DNA of 32,000 nucleotides, from NCBI RefSeq assembly GCF_000020025.1, contig NC_010628.1, positions 3,390,001 through 3,422,000 of the forward strand. Direction: 5' to 3'. Under the pieces are notes generated by a model. It worked only from the letters and a program-made list of their open reading frames with translations. It was not told the origin of the DNA and ran no database searches. The translations under genes were made by a program, and so were the position numbers. This DNA is from Nostoc punctiforme PCC 73102 (GTDB lineage Bacteria; Cyanobacteriota; Cyanobacteriia; Cyanobacteriales; Nostocaceae). The stretch's first letter is position 1. Every line of letters begins with the position of its first letter. This document shows, piece after piece, positions 1,221 to 12,764 of the stretch.

Positions 1221-2894
1221 TCAGTCATTTAATTCCTTCAAATCAGCCGCGACAGGTTGAGAACATCTTTGGATTTGAGGAGAGATAGAGCAAATTGCAT
1301 CTGTCGTTGTTTCAAAACAATTTGATAATCCAATTGTTTTTAACAATCCTGTTCGTTCTAATAGTTGTTTGACTTCGGGTTGTAAACCTGTGAGAATTAA
1401 GCGGCAATTGTGCCGTTCTAAGTCGTGGTAAATATCCTCTAAAGCTACTAATCCAGTTGTGTCCATATTTGGTACAAAGCGCAGCCGGAGAATTAAATAT
1501 TTCACTTCCGGTTCATCGCGGAGGAAGGTAGCAAAGCGTTCAGCAGCACCAAAAAATACGGGGCCATCTATGCGATAAACGGCAATTTCCTTACCTAATT
1601 CCAGAGGAGTACCAGGGGGAAATACTTCGGTTTCAGGTATTTTAACTAGACTTAAATCGCTCATCCGTTTGATGAACAATGCTCCGGCTGCAATCAATCC
1701 TACTTCTACAGCGAGAACTAAATCAAACAAGATTGTTACTAGCCAGGTGAGAATCATTACCGCAAAGTCAGAGTAGGTAGCACGCATCAATAAACCAATG
1801 GCTTCCCATTCAATCATCCGCACACTAACTACCATCAGAATGCCAGCAAGTGCTGCTAAAGGAATCTGTGCTGCTAGGGGTGCTAAAGTTAAAACAATAA
1901 TAGCTAAAGCAACACCGTGAATTACCCCAGATAGTCGAGTTTTGCCGCCCGAACGGACATTGACAGCAGTCCGAGCGATCGCACCTGTTGCCGGGATGCC
2001 GCCAAAAAATGGGATAATAATATTTGCCAATCCTTGACCAATTAATTCGCGATCGCTATTGTGTTTTTCGCTCACTGTCATCCCATCAGCCACTACCGCC
2101 GACAGTAACGATTCAATACTTCCCAGTGCAGCCAAAGCCAAAGCCGGATTAATCAGTTCTCGAATCACACTAAAATCATTCCAGTGGGGAATGCCTTGAG
2201 GCATTGGTAAAGATTGCGGAATGCTGCCAATTGTGGGTACATCCAGATGAAAATAAGTTGCTATCCCCGTTGCCAACACCAATCCCACTAAAGAACCCGG
2301 TATTGTCGTATTAATCCTGGGCCAGAAAATGTTGGCTGCCATTACCAATGTTGCTAACCCAACAGCAGCCCAATTTAGAGCTTCTACATGAGTTAAACTT
2401 TGCCAAAGCCCCGGCAAAAAGTGTTCACTACGTGGTATTCGTAAACCAAAAAAATTATTTAATTGACCACAAAATATAATCACGGCAATACCATTGGTAA
2501 AGCCTGCCGTCACTGGATAGGGAATAAACTTCACTAGCTGCCCAAGTTTGGCAACTCCCAAGGCAATCTGGATAATTCCAGCCATTACCCCAGCAATCCA
2601 AACTTTCTCAAGGCCGTACTTGGCGACAATTCCCACCAAAACCACAGCCATTGCACCTGTCGGCCCTGTAATCTGTACTGGCGAACCACCAAAAATTGCC
2701 GCGACAATTCCCGCTACAATAGCGGTATAAAGTCCCGCCTTTGGTTCTACACCACTCGCTACCGCAAAGGCTAAAGCCAAAGGCAATGCTACCACTGCTG
2801 CTGTTAGTCCACCCGTCAAATCGCCACGCAGTCCACTAAACCAGCGATTCAGACGTAAAAGCTGTGGTTCTTTGAGGATATTAGAGATTGCCAT
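1221..2894 (-). CDS. SulP-family anion transporter with C-terminal STAS domain (DauA/YchM-like rather than clearly BicA)
   Basis: The 557-aa ORF has a multi-TM N-terminal part (LTGGLTAAVVALPLALAFAVASGV, ITGPTGAMAVV, PYPVTAGFTNGIA). Its soluble tail (AVYRIDGPVFFGAAERF...LILRLRFVPNMDTTGL) is typical of a STAS domain. Confidence 0.9.
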   Translation of the reverse strand: MAISNILKEPQLLRLNRWFSGLRGDLTGGLTAAVVALPLALAFAVASGVEPKAGLYTAIVAGIVAAIFGGSPVQITGPTGAMAVVLVGIVAKYGLEKVWIAGVMAGIIQIALGVAKLGQLVKFIPYPVTAGFTNGIAVIIFCGQLNNFFGLRIPRSEHFLPGLWQSLTHVEALNWAAVGLATLVMAANIFWPRINTTIPGSLVGLVLATGIATYFHLDVPTIGSIPQSLPMPQGIPHWNDFSVIRELINPALALAALGSIESLLSAVVADGMTVSEKHNSDRELIGQGLANIIIPFFGGIPATGAIARTAVNVRSGGKTRLSGVIHGVALAIIVLTLAPLAAQIPLAALAGILMVVSVRMIEWEAIGLLMRATYSDFAVMILTWLVTILFDLVLAVEVGLIAAGALFIKRMSDLSLVKIPETEVFPPGTPLELGKEIAVYRIDGPVFFGAAERFATFLRDEPEVKYLILRLRFVPNMDTTGLVALEDIYHDLERHNCRLILTGLQPEVKQLLERTGLLKTIGLSNCFETTTDAICSISPQIQRCSQPVAADLKELND

Positions 2895-5289: not shown

Positions 5290-5718
5290 ATGTTTTTTGG
5301 TAATAGTCAACCAGAATCAGGTGATACTAAGTGGCGTCGCCAGTTGGATAAGTTTGTCAAAGCAAATCAGCAAGAGTTGGCGGCGCTGTTTTGGGGATTG
5401 TGGTTAGCAAATGGTGACAGTCAGGGTACTGTTGGTATTGATTTGCAACCAACGCCGCATTTTGTTTATTGTCCGAAAGAGCAGATAGAGAATTTAAATA
5501 ATAGAGTTGAAAATCGGCTGCAAGAAATTTTGGGAATTGTCGAGAATCACAAGCCGGAAGTGGAAGTTGTGATGATTGGGATTGGAAAGGGGGAAATTAA
5601 GTTGATTCAGTTTGCACCGGAACCAGCACCACCGATTTGTTTTGAGCAAGTTGGGAAGGATGTGGATGGGTTATTGGAAGTTTTGGAGCAGAGGATGAGT
5701 GAGTATTTTTCAAGCTAA
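5290..5718 (+). CDS. Hypothetical protein (142 aa), probably co-transcribed with the ABC transporter
   Basis: Clean ORF starting 38 bp after the ABC stop, with composition like its neighbours. I recognise no motif. Confidence 0.55.
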   Translation: MFFGNSQPESGDTKWRRQLDKFVKANQQELAALFWGLWLANGDSQGTVGIDLQPTPHFVYCPKEQIENLNNRVENRLQEILGIVENHKPEVEVVMIGIGKGEIKLIQFAPEPAPPICFEQVGKDVDGLLEVLEQRMSEYFSS

Positions 5719-5751: not shown

Positions 5752-6570
5752 TTGATGCTATCTATACAGGTCGATTTTTCTATGTCCTCAAACATAAAGA
5801 AAATTAAAAGCTGGAAAGAAGATTATGCTCAATTTTTTGAATCTCCAAGTCGAGAAACTTTTCGTGAATTACTCCGCAACCATACAGGAGAGTATGATGA
5901 TCTAGACTTTAAAAGTGAACTTGTTTCGGAAGATGAAATCGCCAAGAATATTCTTGGCATGGCTAATAAATCCGGTGGTGTAATTATTTTTGGTGTTGAG
6001 GAAAACAAACAAGATAACAGCTTTTATTCTAAGGGATTGCCTGATTTAAATGATAAAACTGATTTTAAAAATAAAGTCGAAAAATATATTCCGTCTCAGT
6101 TAAATTTTGATGTTATAGATTTTTCATACGAAGAATCAGAATATTCAAAACTAAAAGGGAAACTATTCCGGGTTGTGATTATAGAATATAATCCACGATA
6201 TATTCCCTTTTTGCCTAAGAAAGATAGTGATAAAATTAAGCGTTATCACATATTTATTAGACACAACACTAGCACTATCACTGCTGAATATGAACATTTG
6301 CAAGATATTTTAAATCGTAGAGTAGAAACGACATATTCCTCTACTACAGAAATGTCTCTAGCTGAACACCTTGCTCAATTAAAAGAACTATATTCAATGA
6401 TACAAAAGAATAAACCTGGTTCAGCTTTGGCTTTGAACTTTTTGGAAAATACATATTTTACACAGCAAAATCCATATTATCCAAAAGAAGAATATGATGC
6501 TTTTATTAGTAGAATGATTTCTGTAAAGAAAGAAGTAATAGAAGCTATAATCCAAAGAAAAGAACCTTGA
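5752..6570 (+). CDS. AlbA_2 / Schlafen-type divergent-AAA putative DNA-binding domain protein, in an AT-rich segment
   Basis: The N-terminal pattern DDLDFKSEL...EIAKNILGMANKSGGVIIFGVEE matches the AlbA_2 (PF04326-like) core as I remember it. The gene is visibly more AT-rich than its flanks. The likely true start is the ATG at 5782 (MSSNIKKIK). Confidence 0.5.
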   Translation: MMLSIQVDFSMSSNIKKIKSWKEDYAQFFESPSRETFRELLRNHTGEYDDLDFKSELVSEDEIAKNILGMANKSGGVIIFGVEENKQDNSFYSKGLPDLNDKTDFKNKVEKYIPSQLNFDVIDFSYEESEYSKLKGKLFRVVIIEYNPRYIPFLPKKDSDKIKRYHIFIRHNTSTITAEYEHLQDILNRRVETTYSSTTEMSLAEHLAQLKELYSMIQKNKPGSALALNFLENTYFTQQNPYYPKEEYDAFISRMISVKKEVIEAIIQRKEP

Positions 6571-7060
6571 TCGCACTTTTATTACCAGGATCGAGTGTTC
6601 CTAATTTCTCGGCTGCAACTCTAAGAATTGAACGACTTTCAGTAGTATGAACCAAATGGACAAAAGCAGCAATAACCCGTTTTCTGTCGGTTAATTCCAG
6701 CGTTTTTCTAGCTGTCTTCACCAATGGTTTTGGTAATATCTGCCAATCTCGCTTATCTTGCCGAAAATAGGCATAACTCCATTTGAGTAACTGTTCTACA
6801 ATTGCATCACCCAAACTACATTCTGGGAACTGGGATAAAGCCTCAGCCGCCAAAAAATAGGCGCGATAACGATAAAAATCGCCGCAACCGTCATCACAAT
6901 CTATTAAAGCTTGGATAAAATCTTCTTTTTGCTCCTTAGCTACATCCTTTTGGCTGAACCAGTGGACAATCTCTGCTTTCCACTCCGGCTCAAAGATGCG
7001 GTAAATGCCTTGATTTAAATCGCTGCGATCGTGGTTAAAGAAATACTGCCAATCATGCAT
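6545..7060 (-). CDS. Hypothetical protein; looks like the N-terminal region of a HEAT-repeat protein that ends as the first HEAT-like repeat begins (possibly truncated)
   Basis: The 171-aa product ends ...RVAAEKLGTLDPGNKSAIKVLFFGL*. The AAExLGxxxPGNxxAI pattern is the PBS-lyase HEAT-like repeat signature. The 3' end overlaps the convergent AlbA_2 gene by 26 bp. Confidence 0.45.
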   Translation of the reverse strand: MHDWQYFFNHDRSDLNQGIYRIFEPEWKAEIVHWFSQKDVAKEQKEDFIQALIDCDDGCGDFYRYRAYFLAAEALSQFPECSLGDAIVEQLLKWSYAYFRQDKRDWQILPKPLVKTARKTLELTDRKRVIAAFVHLVHTTESRSILRVAAEKLGTLDPGNKSAIKVLFFGL

Positions 7061-9220: not shown

Positions 9221-9308
9221 AGGAGTTTGTAAATTTGATGGCTTCTGAATTTTATTGTTACGACTTTTCATGTTACTTAGGGTTACAGAAAGCGGTATAT
9301 TCATGATT

Positions 9309-9336
9309 GGGGACTAGAGACTGGAGACTGAGAACT
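9309..9336. repeat. STRR1-type heptamer tandem repeat (GGGGACT AGAGACT GGAGACT GAGAACT)
   Basis: Four consecutive heptamers read directly. GGGGACT is a circular permutation of the complement of STRR1 (CCCCAGT), which is known from heterocystous cyanobacteria. Confidence 0.7.
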
Positions 9337-9353
9337 GAAAAGAGAATAATAAA

Positions 9354-9386
9354 AACTCTTGTACAGACGCGATTCATCGCGTCTCT
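9354..9386. repeat. Dispersed 33-bp hairpin repeat, copy 1 (AACTCTTGTACAGACGCGATTCATCGCGTCTCT)
   Basis: Contains a 9-bp perfect stem AGACGCGAT/ATCGCGTCT. A near-identical copy (2 mismatches) lies at 11886-11918 in the same orientation. Confidence 0.8.
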
Positions 9387-9388
9387 AT

Positions 9389-9416
9389 TCCTAACTCAGC
9401 ACTCCTAACTCAGCAC
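9389..9416. repeat. Perfect 14-bp tandem duplication (TCCTAACTCAGCAC x2)
   Basis: Read directly at 9389-9402 and 9403-9416, just upstream of the ParA-like gene. Confidence 0.85.
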
Positions 9417-9442
9417 TCAAGAGGCAGCATCGGAAGCAAGCA

Positions 9443-10075
9443 GTGCCAAAAATCATCGCTATTCTCAACGGTAAAGGAGGAGTCGGCAAAACGACTACCG
9501 CAGTCAATCTGGCTGCAAACTTTGCGAAGAAAAAAAAGGTGTTGCTGATTGATGCAGATATTCAAGGTTCTGCCAGTTGGTGGTTTGGGCGCAGTCAGCA
9601 AGGAATGGGATTTGATTTATCTCAAGAAACAGATCCCAAGCTTTTAAGTGATTTAGGAAAGATAACAGGTTACGATTTAGTAGTGGTGGATACGCCTCCC
9701 GCGCTGCGCTCTGAAGCATTAGTAGCGGTAGTTGCGATCGCAGATTATCTAGTTTTGCCTACACCCCCATCCGCAATGGATTTAGCTATCCTCGTGGAAA
9801 CAGTTAAGGAAGCCGTCATCCCCGTGGGAACCCCCCATCGGGTACTGCTAACTAAAGTCGATACGCGCAGTATTGGGGAAGCGCTAGAAGCAAAAAACAC
9901 TCTCACTAGATTAGGTATTCCTGCTTTTAATACCTTTATCCGTGCTTATAAGGCTCATGAACGAGCGGCGCTTGAGGGTGTAGCGATCGCTCAATGGCGA
10001 GGAAGTAATGCACGAGAGGCGGAGTTAGACTACCGTCGTGCAGCTGATGAATTACAGCGTGATTGGAGAAAATAA
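9443..10075 (+). CDS. ParA/MinD-family deviant Walker-A ATPase; candidate Type-2 McdA (carboxysome positioning)
   Basis: Starts MPKIIAILNGKGGVGKTTTAVNLA (signature lysine present) and has Walker B LVVVDTPP. It is 210 aa with a GTG start. It is coupled to a downstream coiled-coil partner and close to ccmK3/ccmK4. Confidence 0.85.
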   Translation: MPKIIAILNGKGGVGKTTTAVNLAANFAKKKKVLLIDADIQGSASWWFGRSQQGMGFDLSQETDPKLLSDLGKITGYDLVVVDTPPALRSEALVAVVAIADYLVLPTPPSAMDLAILVETVKEAVIPVGTPHRVLLTKVDTRSIGEALEAKNTLTRLGIPAFNTFIRAYKAHERAALEGVAIAQWRGSNAREAELDYRRAADELQRDWRK

Positions 10076-10077
10076 TA

Positions 10078-10698
10078 ATGGCTAGGAAACAAAGTCTCTC
10101 TGACTTACTACAAGAAGAGGCACAAAAATTTACACCCCCAGAAGGTGAATCTGCGATCGAGGTTACAGCAAAAGCAATTACCGAAGAACAGGCTTCATCT
10201 GATGAAGAATCCTCAGCACAAACATCTGAGCCAAATTCTACTAAGCGTACAAGCCCAACTAAAGCTGATTTAGAAGCGACTGTTAAAGAGTTGACAAGTA
10301 ATTTAGAAACAAGCCACAAAAAAGAAGCATCTCTTGGACAAGAAGTTGCTGATTTGCAATCAAAATTATCTAAACAAAAAACATTTGTATCAGAACAAAA
10401 ATCATTACTAGAACAACTAACAAAAGAACTTGAAGAAACTAAAAAAACAGCACTGCAACTTGCAGAAGCAAATTCCAAGCTTATAGAAGAAATTAATGCT
10501 TTAAAACAAACAGCAGAAGATAATTCTAAAAAACTTGTTGTCAAAGAAAGTACTGCTATTAAACCAGTCAAAGATCATTACAATCCACTTAACTACAAAA
10601 AATCACATCGTTCATCGGAAACATTAGCTCAAAATCAACCACAAAATCAACCAGTAGAGTATCCTGAAAGTTCTAATGAGATGTGGTTACTTGACTAG
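10078..10698 (+). CDS. Acidic coiled-coil, Q-rich protein with a Trp four residues from the C-terminus; candidate Type-2 McdB
   Basis: The ATG at 10078 lies 2 nt after the ParA stop (TAA TA ATG). It has a charged, low-complexity N-region and a central heptad-like stretch (LQSKLSKQKTFVSEQKSLLEQLTKELEETKKTALQLAEANSKLIEEINALKQ). The tail is QNQPQNQP and the C-terminus is ...SSNEMWLLD. Confidence 0.55.
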   Translation: MARKQSLSDLLQEEAQKFTPPEGESAIEVTAKAITEEQASSDEESSAQTSEPNSTKRTSPTKADLEATVKELTSNLETSHKKEASLGQEVADLQSKLSKQKTFVSEQKSLLEQLTKELEETKKTALQLAEANSKLIEEINALKQTAEDNSKKLVVKESTAIKPVKDHYNPLNYKKSHRSSETLAQNQPQNQPVEYPESSNEMWLLD

Positions 10699-10723
10699 TA
10701 CAGCTTGGCGCAAATCAAGCTAA

Positions 10724-10756
10724 CTTTAACAAGGGGGATTATGCCCCTTGTTAAAG
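10724..10756. terminator. Strong hairpin (13-bp perfect stem CTTTAACAAGGGG / CCCCTTGTTAAAG) between convergent genes; probable bidirectional terminator
   Basis: The arms at 10724-10736 and 10744-10756 are exact reverse complements with a 7-nt loop. It lies between the stop of the McdB-like gene and the stop of the hydrolase gene. There is no long U-tract. Confidence 0.5.
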
Positions 10757-10863
10757 GCAAACTTCCGACAGCGTAAAATAGAGTATTTTTTTAAAACGTT
10801 CTCTCTAAATACATCCAAATAAAGTGCAAGAGATGCAGCAGACTTCTTGGGTTTTAACTACAA

Positions 10864-11751
10864 TTAAACTCGAAAGTCTAAAATATGCTGTGCAGTAATT
10901 TGTGGTTGTTCCAGATGCGGAAGATGACCACAATCTTGAATCCAGAAGAGGGTACTGTGGGGAATTGCTCTTTTAAATCTCATCGCATCCTTAGTACCCA
11001 AAATTTTATCAGAATCGCCCCATAAAATTAGCGTTTGTTGCAGAATTTGTGATATTTTTTTAAATCTAAAAGCACTGTAACCACCACTTTTAGTAAAAGC
11101 AATCAAAGCTTGATTCCAACTGGGCATTTGAAGATGTAATGCGCCACAACATAAAGCATCCACAGAAGCAAGACTTTGATTTTTATATCCAATGCGAGAA
11201 ACGCGATCGCGCACCTTTAGATTACTCAAAAATTGAGTTGCGAAATAATCCAATGGGGGAAACATGAATTTACTTAACGGTGAACCACCAGCTAACCCCG
11301 CACTATCAATCAACACCAGCTTTTTTACAACTTCCGGGTAAGTCAGCGTAAAATCAATCGCCGTCGCACCCCCCATCGAAGCGCCCACTAAAATAACAGG
11401 TTGGTTAATTAAGCTTTTCCAGAAATAATAAAGATGGGTTTTAATCGCAGTTGGGCTATAAGCAATTCCTGAGAGTCTATCTGTAAACCCAAAACCCAAC
11501 AAATCCACAGCCCACGTTTCATTATCTCTAGAGAGTAGTGGCAAAAGCCGCCGAAATTCTAATACAGAACTGTCAAAGCCGTGAATTAATAAAATAGGAG
11601 TTCCACCACTCCCTTGCTTAACATAAGTTGTGGTAACTGGTTGATTAATTAAAGGAGTAGCGATCGCAGCAGTTTGAATATTCTGAGCTAGTGCGATCGA
11701 GGCAGATTCTGTCAGTTGCCCAACTGCTTGAGGAAGAAAATTCGGAAACAT
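10864..11751 (-). CDS. Alpha/beta-fold hydrolase
   Basis: Has the oxyanion HG motif (LLIHGFDSS), a nucleophile elbow GASMGG, and a C-terminal DCGHLPHLEQP (catalytic His). Confidence 0.85.
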   Translation of the reverse strand: MFPNFLPQAVGQLTESASIALAQNIQTAAIATPLINQPVTTTYVKQGSGGTPILLIHGFDSSVLEFRRLLPLLSRDNETWAVDLLGFGFTDRLSGIAYSPTAIKTHLYYFWKSLINQPVILVGASMGGATAIDFTLTYPEVVKKLVLIDSAGLAGGSPLSKFMFPPLDYFATQFLSNLKVRDRVSRIGYKNQSLASVDALCCGALHLQMPSWNQALIAFTKSGGYSAFRFKKISQILQQTLILWGDSDKILGTKDAMRFKRAIPHSTLFWIQDCGHLPHLEQPQITAQHILDFRV

Positions 11752-11885
11752 AAATTTCAGTTTATCGTATTAGCTTGCTTTGGTGCATCGCTGATTTTGT
11801 TAAACAACAAAATTACACAAACTAATATGCTCAAGTATTATTTGTAATACATAAAACATAGTTTAGCGGCTAATCAAAATATTCT

Positions 11886-11918
11886 AACTCTTGTAAAGAC
11901 GCGATTAATCGCGTCTCT
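11886..11918. repeat. Dispersed 33-bp hairpin repeat, copy 2 (AACTCTTGTAAAGACGCGATTAATCGCGTCTCT)
   Basis: Matches 9354-9386 at 31 of 33 positions and has the same 9-bp stem. It is upstream of ccmK3. Confidence 0.8.
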
Positions 11919-12019
11919 CCTAATTCCCACCACTAAAGAAAATTTTGCAAAATGTCAAAATTGGGACTAAAGCCACGTACAATTGATATCGCCTATCCCT
12001 TATTCCAGGAGCTAATGCC

Positions 12020-12331
12020 ATGCCAATGGCGGTTGGCGTAATTGAAACTTTAGGTTTTCCTAGTGTTTTAGCCGCAGCAGATGCAATGGTCAAAGCTGCC
12101 GCAGTCACGATTGTGTATTATGGTCAAGCCGAAAGCGCTCGTTTGTTAGTCGCTGTCCGGGGACACGTTTCTGAAGTCAATAGAGCTGTTGAAGCCGGAA
12201 TCGAAGCTGGAGAGCAAGTCAAGGTTGGTACAGTAATCACCCACTATATCGTTCCTAATCCTCCCGAAAATGTGGAAACCATATTACCAATCCATTTCAC
12301 TGAAGAATCAGAACCTTTCCGCATGTTCTAA
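12020..12331 (+). CDS. ccmK3: Carboxysome shell protein CcmK3 (BMC-H domain)
   Basis: Starts [34 protein letters not shown] and has the CcmK3-typical HYIVPNPPENV near the C-terminus. It is paired with CcmK4 as in other beta-cyanobacteria. Confidence 0.85.
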   Translation: MPMAVGVIETLGFPSVLAAADAMVKAAAVTIVYYGQAESARLLVAVRGHVSEVNRAVEAGIEAGEQVKVGTVITHYIVPNPPENVETILPIHFTEESEPFRMF

Positions 12332-12416
12332 GCAATTTTGCTATCAAAATCTGTAGCGAAGCTTCGTACAATTAACTTGTAGCCCCCATATCGTTTATTC
12401 ATACAGGAGATTAATA

Positions 12417-12764
12417 ATGTCATTACAGGCAGTTGGAGCACTTGAAACGAAAGGTTTCCCGGCGGTGCTAGCAGCAGCAGATGCTATGGTAAAAGCTGGT
12501 CGAGTCACCCTTGTTGGATATATCAGAGTGGGTAGCGCCCGTTTTACAGTTAATATTCGTGGCGATGTTTCTGAGGTAAAAGCGGCTATGGCTGCTGGTG
12601 TTGAAGCCGCAGAGAATGTATATGGTGGTACCCTAGAATCCTGGGTGATTATTCCTCGTCCTCATGAAAACGTCGAAGCTGTTCTACCAATTGCTTATAC
12701 AGAACAAGTCCAAGGGTATCGAGAATCTGTAGAAAATCCCATTGTCAGATCGAACAATCGATAG
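12417..12764 (+). CDS. ccmK4: Carboxysome shell protein CcmK4 (BMC-H domain)
   Basis: Contains [57 protein letters not shown]...[11 protein letters not shown], which closely resembles Synechocystis CcmK4 as I recall it. Confidence 0.85.

Follow-up and report, generated by a model that had tools for sequence, protein, structure and literature searches.

A probable Type 2 McdA/McdB carboxysome-distribution pair next to shell protein genes on the chromosome of Nostoc punctiforme PCC 73102

The window, a stretch of 32,000 nt from the chromosome of Nostoc punctiforme PCC 73102, contains a gene for a ParA/MinD-type ATPase, directly followed by the gene of its partner protein, a convergent hydrolase gene and two genes coding for BMC-H shell proteins. 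Other genes in the window are prk, petH, hom, and metK. The features of the locus are listed below under the names assigned in this study.

5290-5718, plus strand: ccmS, encoding a β-carboxysome assembly chaperone of 142 amino acids (NCBIfam slr1911_CcmS), 3.7 kb upstream of mcdA
9443-10075, plus strand: mcdA, probable Type 2 McdA, a ParA/MinD-type ATPase of 210 amino acids with GTG start (ORF call, family matches, residue signatures)
10078-10698, plus strand: mcdB, probable Type 2 McdB adaptor of 206 amino acids, an ORF beginning two bases past the mcdA stop codon
10078-10137, plus strand: N-terminal peptide of McdB (residues 1-20, MARKQSLSDLLQEEAQKFTP), basic then acidic, presumed to contact McdA and to stimulate its ATPase
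10261-10557, plus strand: central coiled coil of McdB (residues 62-160; AlphaFold2 helix with unbroken heptad register)
10678-10695, plus strand: C-terminal motif EMWLLD of McdB with W203, presumed carboxysome-shell contact
10724-10756, no strand: inverted repeat of 16 nt (94% complementary, 1-nt loop) in the intergenic space where mcdB and the hydrolase gene converge
10864-11751, minus strand: α/β-fold hydrolase of 295 amino acids (Abhydrolase_1, E = 3e-26)
12020-12331, plus strand: ccmK3 (inferred), BMC-H shell protein of 103 amino acids (Pfam BMC), directly upstream of a clear ccmK4
12417-12764, plus strand: ccmK4, BMC-H shell protein of 115 amino acids (Pfam BMC; best named PDB matches are CcmK4)

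The ATPase has the N-terminus MPKIIAILNGKGGVGKTTT, with GTG as start codon. Pfam/NCBIfam scans gave matches to AAA_31, CbiA, and ParA families; the best NCBIfam match, ParA_partition, scores 122.9 and lies under its cut-off of 180. The criteria for Type 2 McdA and McdB were taken from PMC7182216, and each was checked on the sequence. Type 2 McdA is distinguished by a signature lysine, the motif GKTTT, a WW pair, F/E/P following an insertion, and the lack of the Type 1 extension (PMC7182216). All of these are found in the 210-residue protein: its P-loop reads GKGGVGKTTT with the signature lysine at K11, W46-W47 lie by the Walker A′ motif, F57, E62, and P65 follow a short insertion, and the Type 1 extension is absent. 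The original prediction of a 210-residue ParA/MinD-type ATPase with this lysine in GKGGVGKTT therefore holds. The stretch after WW is 7 residues longer than in the classical-type ParA 3cwq. The Walker A lysines K11 and K16, T17-T19, W46-W47, F57, E62, and P65 do not vary in the homologues from Calothrix, Trichocoleus, and two metagenomic loci.

The junction of the two genes consists of the stop codon TAA (10073-10075), the bases TA and the ATG at 10078, exactly as had been predicted. An alternative TTG at 10063, upstream of this ATG, would yield a protein of 211 amino acids; the ATG is favored because the N-terminus of the family is M-[AV]-[RK]-K. No family above cut-off was found for McdB in Pfam and NCBIfam, and neither an HTH, RHH, nor ParB domain was detected in these scans, in line with the predicted lack of a ParB-like HTH. 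Its homologues (n = 197) are all cyanobacterial and are labeled "hypothetical" or carry generic coiled-coil names; a profile search collected 311 clusters at 50% identity.

Type 2 McdB proteins are encoded directly downstream of mcdA, are polar and disordered, and have a basic-then-acidic N-terminus, a central, glutamine-rich coiled coil and a tryptophan within the last four residues (PMC7182216). The Nostoc protein shows all of these features save the glutamine-rich coiled coil, which is only weakly developed (7.1% Gln). Polar or charged residues make up 65% of it. At its N-terminus, R3-K4 precede D9/E13/E14, the family consensus being MARKRLSDLLREEAQK, and a short helix is predicted by AlphaFold2 at residues 7-17. 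From the behavior of ParA partner proteins (discussed in PMC7182216), this peptide is presumed to contact McdA and to stimulate its ATPase. The predicted charged, disordered N-region and central coiled coil are both recovered: AlphaFold2 places a single 99-residue helix at residues 62-160 (pLDDT about 90-96 at residues 61-150) between disordered flanks (pLDDT <50 at 24-57 and 183-199). The hydrophobicity power of the helix is 83 at period 3.5 vs. 8-20 at other periods, and its heptad contrast lies 6.1 sd over 500 shuffles (0/500 as high).

The protein ends in SSNEMWLLD, so that the tryptophan predicted four residues from the C-terminus of a 206-residue partner is W203. The sequence W-L-[LY]-D is unchanged in 19 Nostocales homologues, and 142 of 150 family representatives have a tryptophan in the last four residues. 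The invariant C-terminal tryptophan is needed for carboxysome association of the McdB proteins of S. elongatus and H. neapolitanus (PMC11321042), and the EMWLLD motif presumably contacts the carboxysome shell. The "Q-rich tail" pointed out earlier (QNQPQNQP) is present; however, it is a perfect and recent 12-nt tandem duplication (10630-10653) and not the glutamine feature which defines the family, because it is restricted to the closest relatives. Some relatives carry a duplication of about 40 residues in the tail.

Downstream of the pair, 1321 nt separate the mcdB stop codon (10698) from the first BMC gene start (12020), and the hydrolase gene on the minus strand is the only ORF with family support in between, which agrees with the described ccmK pair about 1.3 kb away behind a single hydrolase gene. 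Among named PDB chains, the ccmK4 product matches the CcmK4 chains 2a10 and 6scr best (E about 1e-42; CcmK1/CcmK2 chains about 1e-35). Its top two matches carry generic names (5vgu, 3e-51; 4ox6, 2e-47), the latter of which we take to be CcmK4 of S. elongatus. The 103-residue protein shows no clear preference among the solved chains of CcmK1, CcmK2, and CcmK4 (E 4e-30 to 6e-26) and is named CcmK or "BMC domain protein" in public records. From its place before ccmK4 and the systematic co-occurrence of ccmK3 and ccmK4 (PMC6788708), we infer that it is CcmK3.

The gene order was compared with related genomes. mcdA and mcdB are adjacent in 80 of 80 Nostoc species genomes, with McdA identities of 93-100% over these loci, and the orthologous loci lie on chromosomes of 7-8.5 Mb. 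In 68 of the 80 genomes ccmK3-ccmK4 follow the pair; the other 12 loci have no ccmK3-K4 within 6 kb downstream, contig ends cutting about half of these. The ccmS product scores 227 bits against slr1911_CcmS (cut-off 125) and is 83% identical to a Calothrix brevissima protein with Pfam CcmS; in 29 of 80 Nostoc loci, as well as in that Calothrix species, ccmS precedes mcdA at a distance of ≤6 kb. A ParA gene also directly precedes McdB-family genes in four more distant cyanobacterial loci (Calothrix, one assigned to Trichocoleus, and two other metagenomic ones). In one of these, the pair is preceded by three genes whose products carry NDH-1 antiporter-like and ChpXY domains; we read them as the CO2-uptake genes ndhF3-ndhD3-cupA.

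Type 2 mcdAB beside ccmK3-ccmK4 have been reported in 41 species (MacCready, Basalla & Vecchiarelli 2020, Mol Biol Evol; PMC7182216). The Nostoc pair resembles these β-cyanobacterial systems in McdA signatures, gene order, McdB architecture, and ccmK3-ccmK4 position, and differs in nothing substantive apart from a coiled coil weak in glutamine and the QNQP duplication in the tail. The experimentally characterized Type 1 system of Synechococcus elongatus PCC 7942 likewise combines a ParA-type ATPase with a downstream adaptor, whose McdB shares the charged N-terminus, a coiled coil and the invariant C-terminal tryptophan. [quoted passage not shown] The solved McdA-like chain 6noo matches Nostoc McdA only in the P-loop (E = 8e-8).

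The signatures of the ATPase, the architecture of its partner and the ccmK3-ccmK4 linkage support the reading as a Type 2 McdA/McdB (maintenance of carboxysome distribution) system, and it is very likely that the pair belongs to it. As such it is an ordinary chromosomal copy of an already described system, and the arrangement is not new, since it was described in 41 species (PMC7182216). In databases the pair bears no Mcd name; as expected, the genes are labeled "ParA family" or "chromosome partitioning protein" and "hypothetical protein".

These labels would suit a DNA partition module, in which a type Ib-like ParA and a small adaptor segregate a chromosome, a plasmid or an integrated element, and so would ParA_partition as best, though sub-threshold, NCBIfam match. 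Moreover, the ParAs closest to McdA beyond cyanobacterial chromosomes are plasmid-borne. The full-length identity to McdA is 64-67% for Thermus plasmid ParAs (e.g., pTthSNM1-1c, NZ_AP025598.1) and 57% for the ParA of pOSCIL6304.01 from Oscillatoria acuminata PCC 6304, and all have KGGVGKTTT, WW, and F/E/P. The McdA signatures are thus not exclusive to carboxysome systems: the signature lysine, proposed as a mark of Type 2 McdA, is present as K11 but occurs on these plasmids as well. The assignment therefore rests on the McdB partner and on synteny. It was unexpected that these supposedly McdA-specific signatures occur on plasmid ParAs whose partners share the N-terminal peptide of McdB. The plasmid adaptor gene lies directly downstream of ParA, like mcdB after mcdA, and its product starts with the basic-acidic peptide known from McdB (KRKRLAELVREE or KRRRLSDVVNQE), after which comes a linker rich in Pro, Glu, and Ala. 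Apart from mcdB genes, it was the only match to a profile of the McdB N-terminus (E = 0.009). However, it has neither coiled coil nor C-terminal tryptophan motif; its C-terminus is formed by a conserved domain (about 55 residues, YLT-VRKE-RL...RITENTLIR-A-DLLL) which is absent from McdB. This domain looks ribbon-helix-helix-like, with no match among Pfam families and PDB sequences, and the cargo of these pairs is presumably the plasmid itself. Since the signatures go with another kind of adaptor on these plasmids, the cargo is not set by the ATPase alone.

Type Ib ParA/ParF-ParG and Soj-Spo0J resemble the Nostoc pair in the deviant Walker A with signature lysine, the small ATPase (about 200-260 amino acids) and ATPase stimulation via the basic N-terminal peptide of the partner, which is presumed for McdB. 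But these classical ATPases match McdA far more weakly (3cwq, E = 5e-23; ParF, E = 5e-13; Soj, E = 3e-14 and confined to the P-loop region), and they work with a DNA-binding partner and centromere repeats, neither of which occurs at the Nostoc locus. The only repeat upstream of mcdA is a 2 × 14-nt tandem (9389-9416), absent as a conserved feature from orthologous loci; a comparison of these loci gave no conserved centromere-like array, and the upstream DNA itself is not conserved, which agrees with the original statement that no parS-like array is evident. McdB relatives were found on 0 of 72,556 plasmids, so that a plasmid-partition partner with centromere sites, named beforehand as the finding that would overturn the prediction, did not emerge. 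With ParAs of Nostoc plasmids only 31-36% identical to McdA and the locus lying among housekeeping genes in stable synteny on large chromosomes, DNA partition is highly improbable.

Somewhat less improbable, though still unlikely, is a ParA-type system with a cargo or main task other than carboxysome spacing: McdB together with CcmK3/CcmK4 might tune shell composition or permeability, or the pair might serve to place some other cargo, nucleoid-associated or cytoplasmic, and its linkage to ccmK would then be secondary. McdB can persist without McdA: in Cylindrospermum stagnale, mcdB still lies next to ccmK3-ccmK4, but of mcdA only a decayed fragment interrupted by stop codons is left. Sixteen species have only a McdB-like gene by ccmK3/K4, McdA-independent functions have been suggested, and positioning by Type 2 systems in their native hosts was called "speculative" (PMC7182216); a literature search found no later test of it. 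A conserved hydrolase of unassigned role also travels with mcdAB. On the other hand, a nearly identical mcdA is retained directly before mcdB in all 80 Nostoc genomes, which speaks for a functional ATPase with its adaptor. The two terminal motifs of McdB match those shown by experiment, in other McdB proteins, to mediate contact with ParA and binding to carboxysomes, and an alternative cargo gene with consistent linkage is missing.

For the preferred Type 2 McdA/McdB reading, we infer carboxysome positioning, and its steps, its cargo and the CcmK3/K4 contact may be outlined by analogy. As in Type 1 and α systems, ATP-bound McdA dimers would coat the nucleoid non-specifically. McdB would dimerize via its central coiled coil and sit on the carboxysome shell via EMWLLD, with the CcmK3/CcmK4 hexamers encoded alongside as likely contacts. 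[quoted passage not shown] The basic N-terminal peptide of McdB (MARKQSLSDLLQEE) would stimulate ATP hydrolysis and release of McdA, whereby each carboxysome could clear McdA locally and drift up the remaining gradient as a Brownian ratchet. Carboxysomes would thus be spaced apart and inherited by daughter cells.

The inverted repeat between mcdB and the hydrolase gene is possibly a terminator hairpin shared by both; it has no T-run, and a terminator scan made no call there. For the hydrolase itself no NCBIfam model scored over its cut-off. It lies beside mcdAB in 64 of 80 Nostoc loci and also in Cylindrospermum and Calothrix, and a 57% identical copy is located directly upstream of mcdA in the locus whose protein NCBI assigns to Trichocoleus sp.

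The open reading frames called in the window reproduced those of the original prediction at the same positions, and the junction between mcdA, the gene of the ATPase, and mcdB, the gene of its partner or adaptor, reads TAA-TA-ATG as it had proposed.

Features at and around the mcdAB locus
1221-2894, minus strand: SulP/STAS transporter, closer to DauA/SulP models than to BicA
5290-5718, plus strand: ccmS, chaperone of beta-carboxysome assembly (227 bits with NCBIfam, cut-off 125)
within 5752-7060: Schlafen/AlbA_2-domain protein of 272 aa (plus strand) and a family-less protein of 171 aa (minus strand)
9443-10075, plus strand: mcdA, ParA/MinD-type ATPase of 210 aa, GTG start, beginning MPKIIAILNGKGGVGKTTT
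10078-10698, plus strand: mcdB, 206 aa, C-terminus ...NEMWLLD
10864-11751, minus strand: convergent gene for an alpha/beta hydrolase of 295 aa
12020-12331: putative ccmK3, BMC-domain gene, 103 aa
12417-12764: ccmK4, BMC-domain gene, 115 aa
13599-14795, plus strand: HetZ-related protein 2 gene, 3′ of ccmK4 (613 bits with NCBIfam, cut-off 400)

Shell genes had been noted close by in the original prediction, and ccmK3-ccmK4 are located 1.3 kb downstream of mcdAB. On the upstream side, 3.7 kb separate mcdA from the chaperone gene ccmS, and ccmS, mcdA, mcdB, the hydrolase gene, ccmK3 and ccmK4 are all found inside 7.5 kb. In the PDB, the named chains most similar to the ccmK4 product are those of CcmK4 (2a10 and 6scr; E ~1e-42), and the chains that bear the names CcmK1 or CcmK2 reach E ~1e-35. 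The top two PDB matches of the product, 5vgu (3e-51) and 4ox6 (2e-47), are both generically named; 4ox6 is CcmK4 of S. elongatus. The first BMC protein is about equidistant to every solved CcmK paralogue in the PDB comparison. Its gene was taken as ccmK3, since it is located directly 5′ of ccmK4 and the two genes co-occur systematically (PMC6788708).

The SulP transporter was rejected as BicA, scoring 313 bits against a BicA cut-off of 880. Further genes in the window have housekeeping functions (prk, petH, hom, metK), and scans for promoters and terminators yielded counts not above those of shuffled sequences. The Schlafen and 171-aa open reading frames are located between ccmS and a hexapeptide transferase gene and are absent from this position in Calothrix. 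With the Schlafen gene found in just 3 of 87 loci, a recent insertion is suggested.

[quoted passage not shown] The signature lysine noted in the original prediction is present in N9-G-K11-G-G-V-G-K16-T and is invariant in two protein alignments, A3 and A4. Alignment A3 comprises the McdA of the window and four further ATPases, each encoded 5′ of a family member, from Calothrix brevissima, a locus assigned to Trichocoleus and two metagenomic cyanobacterial loci. In it the threonines T17-T18-T19 are invariant, as is the double tryptophan in LLIDADIQGSASW46W47 across the five cyanobacterial sequences. Residues F57, E62 and P65 are invariant in both A3 and A4. Compared with the classical-type ParA 3cwq, the protein carries 2 + 5 = 7 extra residues after the double tryptophan, and its 210 aa can be aligned over the full length to 3cwq (209 aa) and ParF (206 aa) with no large insert. 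By Pfam and NCBIfam the ATPase belongs to the ParA/CbiA/AAA_31 group, with a ParA_partition score of 122.9, which is under the equivalog cut-off of 180.

These signatures have been described as absent from classical ParAs (PMC7182216), but exceptions were found on plasmids. ParAs that are 60-80% identical to the McdA of the window occur in 33 Thermus plasmid records; among the Thermus matches listed the ParAs are 64-68% identical, and most of the plasmids have a size of 19-25 kb. A ParA with 57% identity is encoded on pOSCIL6304.01 of Oscillatoria acuminata PCC 6304. One of the 33 Thermus plasmids, pTthSNM1-1c of Thermus thermophilus (NZ_AP025598.1; L088:2498-3480), and the Oscillatoria plasmid locus (L089:2498-3576) were compared with window positions 9443-10137, and both ParAs carry every Type 2 McdA signature (GKTTT, WW, F/E/P) at 57-67% identity. 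In practice, the sequence features of the ATPase thus appear to mark a ParA clade, not its cargo. The ATPase is thereby less diagnostic, although the features found in the McdA of the window are unaffected, and the assignment of the locus to carboxysomes has to be based on adaptor and synteny, as it is here.

For the adaptor, the Type 2 criteria are an open reading frame directly after mcdA, a charged N-terminus with positive ahead of negative residues, a central coiled coil with glutamine-rich stretches inside it, and a polar, disordered protein (PMC7182216), as well as an invariant tryptophan in the last four residues (PMC7182216; PMC11321042). The McdB of the window begins MARKQSLSDLLQEE, and its N-terminal region is charged as the original prediction had stated. 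In M-A-R3-K4-Q-S-L-S-D9-L-L-Q-E13-E14 the basic residues precede the acidic ones, giving residues 1-6 a net charge of +2 and residues 7-20 one of -2. A central coiled coil had also been proposed, and an AlphaFold2 model made from a 19-sequence alignment predicts a helix at residues 62-160 of 206 with a pLDDT of 90-96 over most of its length. Its heptad register is unbroken, with a heptad contrast 6.1 sd above 500 shuffles, and its hydrophobicity shows a sharp peak at a period of 3.5 (power 83). The model further contains a short helix at 7-17, a region without confident structure at 18-61 and an unstructured tail. The predicted disorder is reflected in pLDDT values below 50 at 24-57 and 183-199, and 96 of the 206 residues, outside the two helices, are without predicted structure in this model. 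Published Type 2 McdBs are disordered to 64-68% on average by PONDR (PMC7182216). Polar or charged residues make up 65% of the protein and hydrophobic ones 21%. The tryptophan four residues from the C-terminus is W203 of 206, which is invariant in 19 homologues.

The glutamine feature is the sole weak Type 2 criterion of this McdB. The sequence QNQPQNQP is present in the tail as described, but it does not represent the glutamine feature of the class, as it is a perfect 12-nt tandem (10630-10653, QNQP twice) whose duplication occurs in close relatives only. Glutamine makes up 7.1% of the helix and 7.8% of the whole protein, compared with 4.5-15% across family representatives, and no numeric threshold is set in the class description (PMC7182216). 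In addition, the tail length of McdB varies by duplication (columns 160-260 of the protein alignment A1): a segment of about 40 residues, KPVK..YNP.NYKKSH.SSE.LAQ.QP, is repeated in some Nostoc relatives (245-248 aa) and in two other homologues.

A set of 5.8 billion proteins contains 197 detectable McdB relatives, and those with an organism name all belong to the Nostocales. The expectation that such pairs are usually labeled just 'ParA family' and 'hypothetical' was borne out on the adaptor side, all 197 being named 'hypothetical' or given generic coiled-coil names. A McdB profile matched 311 clusters (E up to 0.001) among 1.84 billion cluster representatives. A tryptophan in the last four residues is present in 142 of the best 150 of these clusters, and most of the exceptions resemble truncated fragments. 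The family members end in MWLLD, TWLYD, TWLL, GWVD, GWFD or SWCYD and share the N-terminal consensus MARKRLSDLLREEAQK. Both ends of McdB are conserved and the middle diverges freely, a sequence pattern which fits an adaptor that contacts the ATPase with one end and the cargo with the other, and which agrees with published descriptions of McdB. A search seeded with a distant member of the McdB family returned just unnamed, Trichocoleus or Thainema proteins and no named Type 2 McdB, and a search seeded with Tolypothrix PCC 7910 together with a cluster look-up gave no entry from Fremyella diplosiphon NIES-3275. The region encoding McdB is 100% identical in contig NZ_JADEXU010000069.1 of Nostoc sp. 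LEGE 12450. The exact 206-aa sequence is missing from a collection of 15 billion proteins, which holds McdA, CcmK3, CcmK4, the hydrolase and CcmS of the window; mcdB may be uncalled, or called with a different start, in the source assembly.

Type 2 mcdAB genes are often clustered with carboxysome genes, above all with ccmK3-ccmK4 (PMC7182216). The conservation of this arrangement was analyzed in the mcdAB loci of 80 species-level Nostoc genomes, which are the best 80 of a scan of genome contigs and all belong to Nostoc, and wider synteny was taken from five contigs. In all 80 Nostoc loci mcdA is located directly 5′ of mcdB, and the two genes are also adjacent in the Calothrix, the Trichocoleus-assigned and two other metagenomic loci. 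The McdA proteins of the Nostoc loci are 93-100% and the McdB proteins 70-94% identical. The genes ccmK3-ccmK4 follow within 6 kb 3′ of mcdAB in 68 of the 80 loci, with about half of the exceptions being cut by contig ends, and they also follow in Cylindrospermum. The hydrolase gene is located between mcdB and ccmK3 in 64/80 loci, and in five ccmK3 comes right after mcdB without it. Upstream, ccmS was found within 6 kb 5′ of mcdA in 29 of the 80 Nostoc loci as well as in Calothrix brevissima, whose locus has the order ccmS, hexapeptide transferase, P450, mcdA, mcdB and hydrolase. The HetZ-related protein 2 gene follows ccmK4 in 63 of the 80 loci and in Cylindrospermum.

Outside Nostoc, the locus whose protein is assigned to Trichocoleus sp. 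by NCBI has the order hydrolase, mcdA, mcdB. In one metagenomic locus mcdA-mcdB is preceded by a trio of genes whose products have domains of the NDH-1 antiporter-like and ChpXY kinds and which were read as the CO2-uptake genes ndhF3-ndhD3-cupA; a second one contains the mcdA-mcdB pair alone. The chromosome of Cylindrospermum stagnale PCC 7417 carries mcdB, the hydrolase gene and ccmK3-ccmK4, and mcdA persists only as a decayed fragment (L081:5300-6000) with 36% identity over residues 13-138 and stop codons. In a near-identical read-assembly contig (L082) a truncated P450 gene of 174 aa is located just 5′ of this remnant. At least some orphan McdBs thus arise through the loss of mcdA.

A ParA-type ATPase followed by a small protein could also form a DNA partition module of a type Ib-like ParA and its adaptor. 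Such a module would carry a centromere-binding partner with an HTH (ParB) or RHH (ParG-like) fold, but no DNA-binding domain was found in McdB with Pfam or NCBIfam, which returned just weak coiled-coil look-alikes (ATG16, crescentin rod, SMC), and the AlphaFold2 model consists of a single long helix and disordered regions. A plasmid or another mobile replicon would be expected as the carrier, whereas the orthologous loci are located on chromosomes of 7-8.5 Mb, McdB has no match on 72,556 plasmids (E up to 1e-3), and the ParAs of Nostoc plasmids are merely 31-36% identical to the ATPase of the window. Centromere repeats would be expected near the ATPase gene, but the sequence 5′ of mcdA differs from one orthologous locus to another and contains no repeat array; in ten of these loci the conserved part is limited to about 25 nt before the GTG start. 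The intergenic region between the P450 gene and mcdA (9305-9420) contains Nostoc-style heptamer-like repeats (GACTGGA/GACTGAG/AACTGAA), which vary between Nostoc strains. The same holds for a hairpin with a 12-bp stem (9362-9387) and two tandem copies of 14 nt (9389-9416), which were rejected as operator or centromere, given their lack of conservation at the orthologous loci. The counter-example named in the original prediction, homologues that are plasmid-partition partners with centromere sites, was not encountered, given the lack of McdB on plasmids, the lack of a repeat array and the distance of the Nostoc plasmid ParAs. A function in DNA partition is thus highly improbable.

Based on adaptor and gene order, mcdAB almost certainly belongs to the described Type 2 class, and a function of the pair in carboxysome positioning is very probable by analogy. 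By analogy with Type 1, as in S. elongatus PCC 7942, and with alpha systems, ATP-bound McdA would bind the nucleoid. Dimers of McdB would be located on the carboxysome shell via the tryptophan motif, with CcmK3/K4 as plausible contacts, and the N-terminal peptide of McdB would stimulate the release of McdA. The carboxysomes would then travel up the resulting McdA gradients, leading to their mutual spacing. A Type 2 pair would further be expected to have a McdB that localizes to carboxysomes, phase-separates and stimulates McdA, and its deletion to lead to carboxysome clustering. Among Type 2 McdBs, those of Gloeobacter, Fremyella and Fischerella have been reported to phase-separate in vitro, and the Gloeobacter protein has been reported to load onto S. 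elongatus carboxysomes. Type 2 positioning in vivo 'remains speculative' until its characterization in a native host (PMC7182216), and no native-host study was found in the literature searched. The grouping of ccmS to ccmK4 within 7.5 kb makes this locus a compact target for such a test, and it also opens the question of how carboxysomes are handled in heterocyst differentiation.

The locus is already known in kind, since the same arrangement has been published for 41 species and the census covered heterocystous Nostocales, e.g., Calothrix 336/3, Fremyella, and Fischerella (PMC7182216). The original prediction was correct, and the result is a useful re-annotation and not a discovery. Its value lies chiefly in annotation: hundreds of Nostocales genomes carry these genes as 'ParA family / chromosome partitioning protein' and 'hypothetical protein', and the label 'chromosome partitioning' misleads work on chromosome and plasmid segregation in the polyploid, filamentous Nostocales. 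Just two points go further than the literature read, namely the relatives on plasmids and the conservation of the hydrolase.

The plasmid relatives caution against calling McdA from ATPase signatures alone and offer a concrete, testable hypothesis on how a motor for DNA partition came to serve a protein organelle. Directly 3′ of parA, the Thermus and Oscillatoria plasmids encode short adaptors with a McdB-like start of basic, then acidic residues (VKRKRLAELVREE and MTKRRRLSDVVNQE, respectively). A profile built from residues 1-26 of 117 McdB representatives was compared with 9,584 open reading frame fragments, taken from the window and from all loci. It matched the mcdB frames of the window and of the mcdB-bearing loci and, apart from these, only the beginning of the adaptor from Thermus (E 0.009). 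BLASTP gave no match between McdB and the Thermus adaptor. In both plasmid adaptors the N-terminal peptide is followed by a Pro/Glu/Ala-rich linker and, at the end, by a domain of about 55 residues that is conserved between the two (YLT-VRKE-RL...RITENTLIR-A-DLLL). [quoted passage not shown] The C-terminal domain is possibly RHH-like by its sequence; it matched none of the Pfam families and gave no significant hit among PDB sequences.

Whether Type 2 McdAB and these plasmid modules form one family, in which the motor and the N-terminal peptide were kept and the cargo end was exchanged, appears evenly balanced. The exchanged ends may be a compact, possibly RHH-like DNA-binding domain on the plasmids and a coiled coil with a C-terminal tryptophan motif for the carboxysomes. 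If this is true, the published 'McdA-specific' signatures would mark this ParA clade and not carboxysome function, and the carboxysome system would probably be derived from a plasmid partition system or have given its motor to one. The adaptor peptides should then be interchangeable between both systems. The sequence identity of 64-67% between Cyanobacteria and Deinococcota suggests horizontal transfer between these phyla. A limited keyword search, which is no proof of novelty, found no link between McdA and Thermus plasmids in the literature.

The second addition is the hydrolase, which accompanies mcdAB from Nostoc to the Trichocoleus-assigned locus and, judged by this gene order, may be a third functional component. 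The 295-aa protein of the window reached the cut-off of no NCBIfam model. In the Trichocoleus-assigned locus a copy with 57% identity (L085:4307-5194) is located directly 5′ of mcdA.
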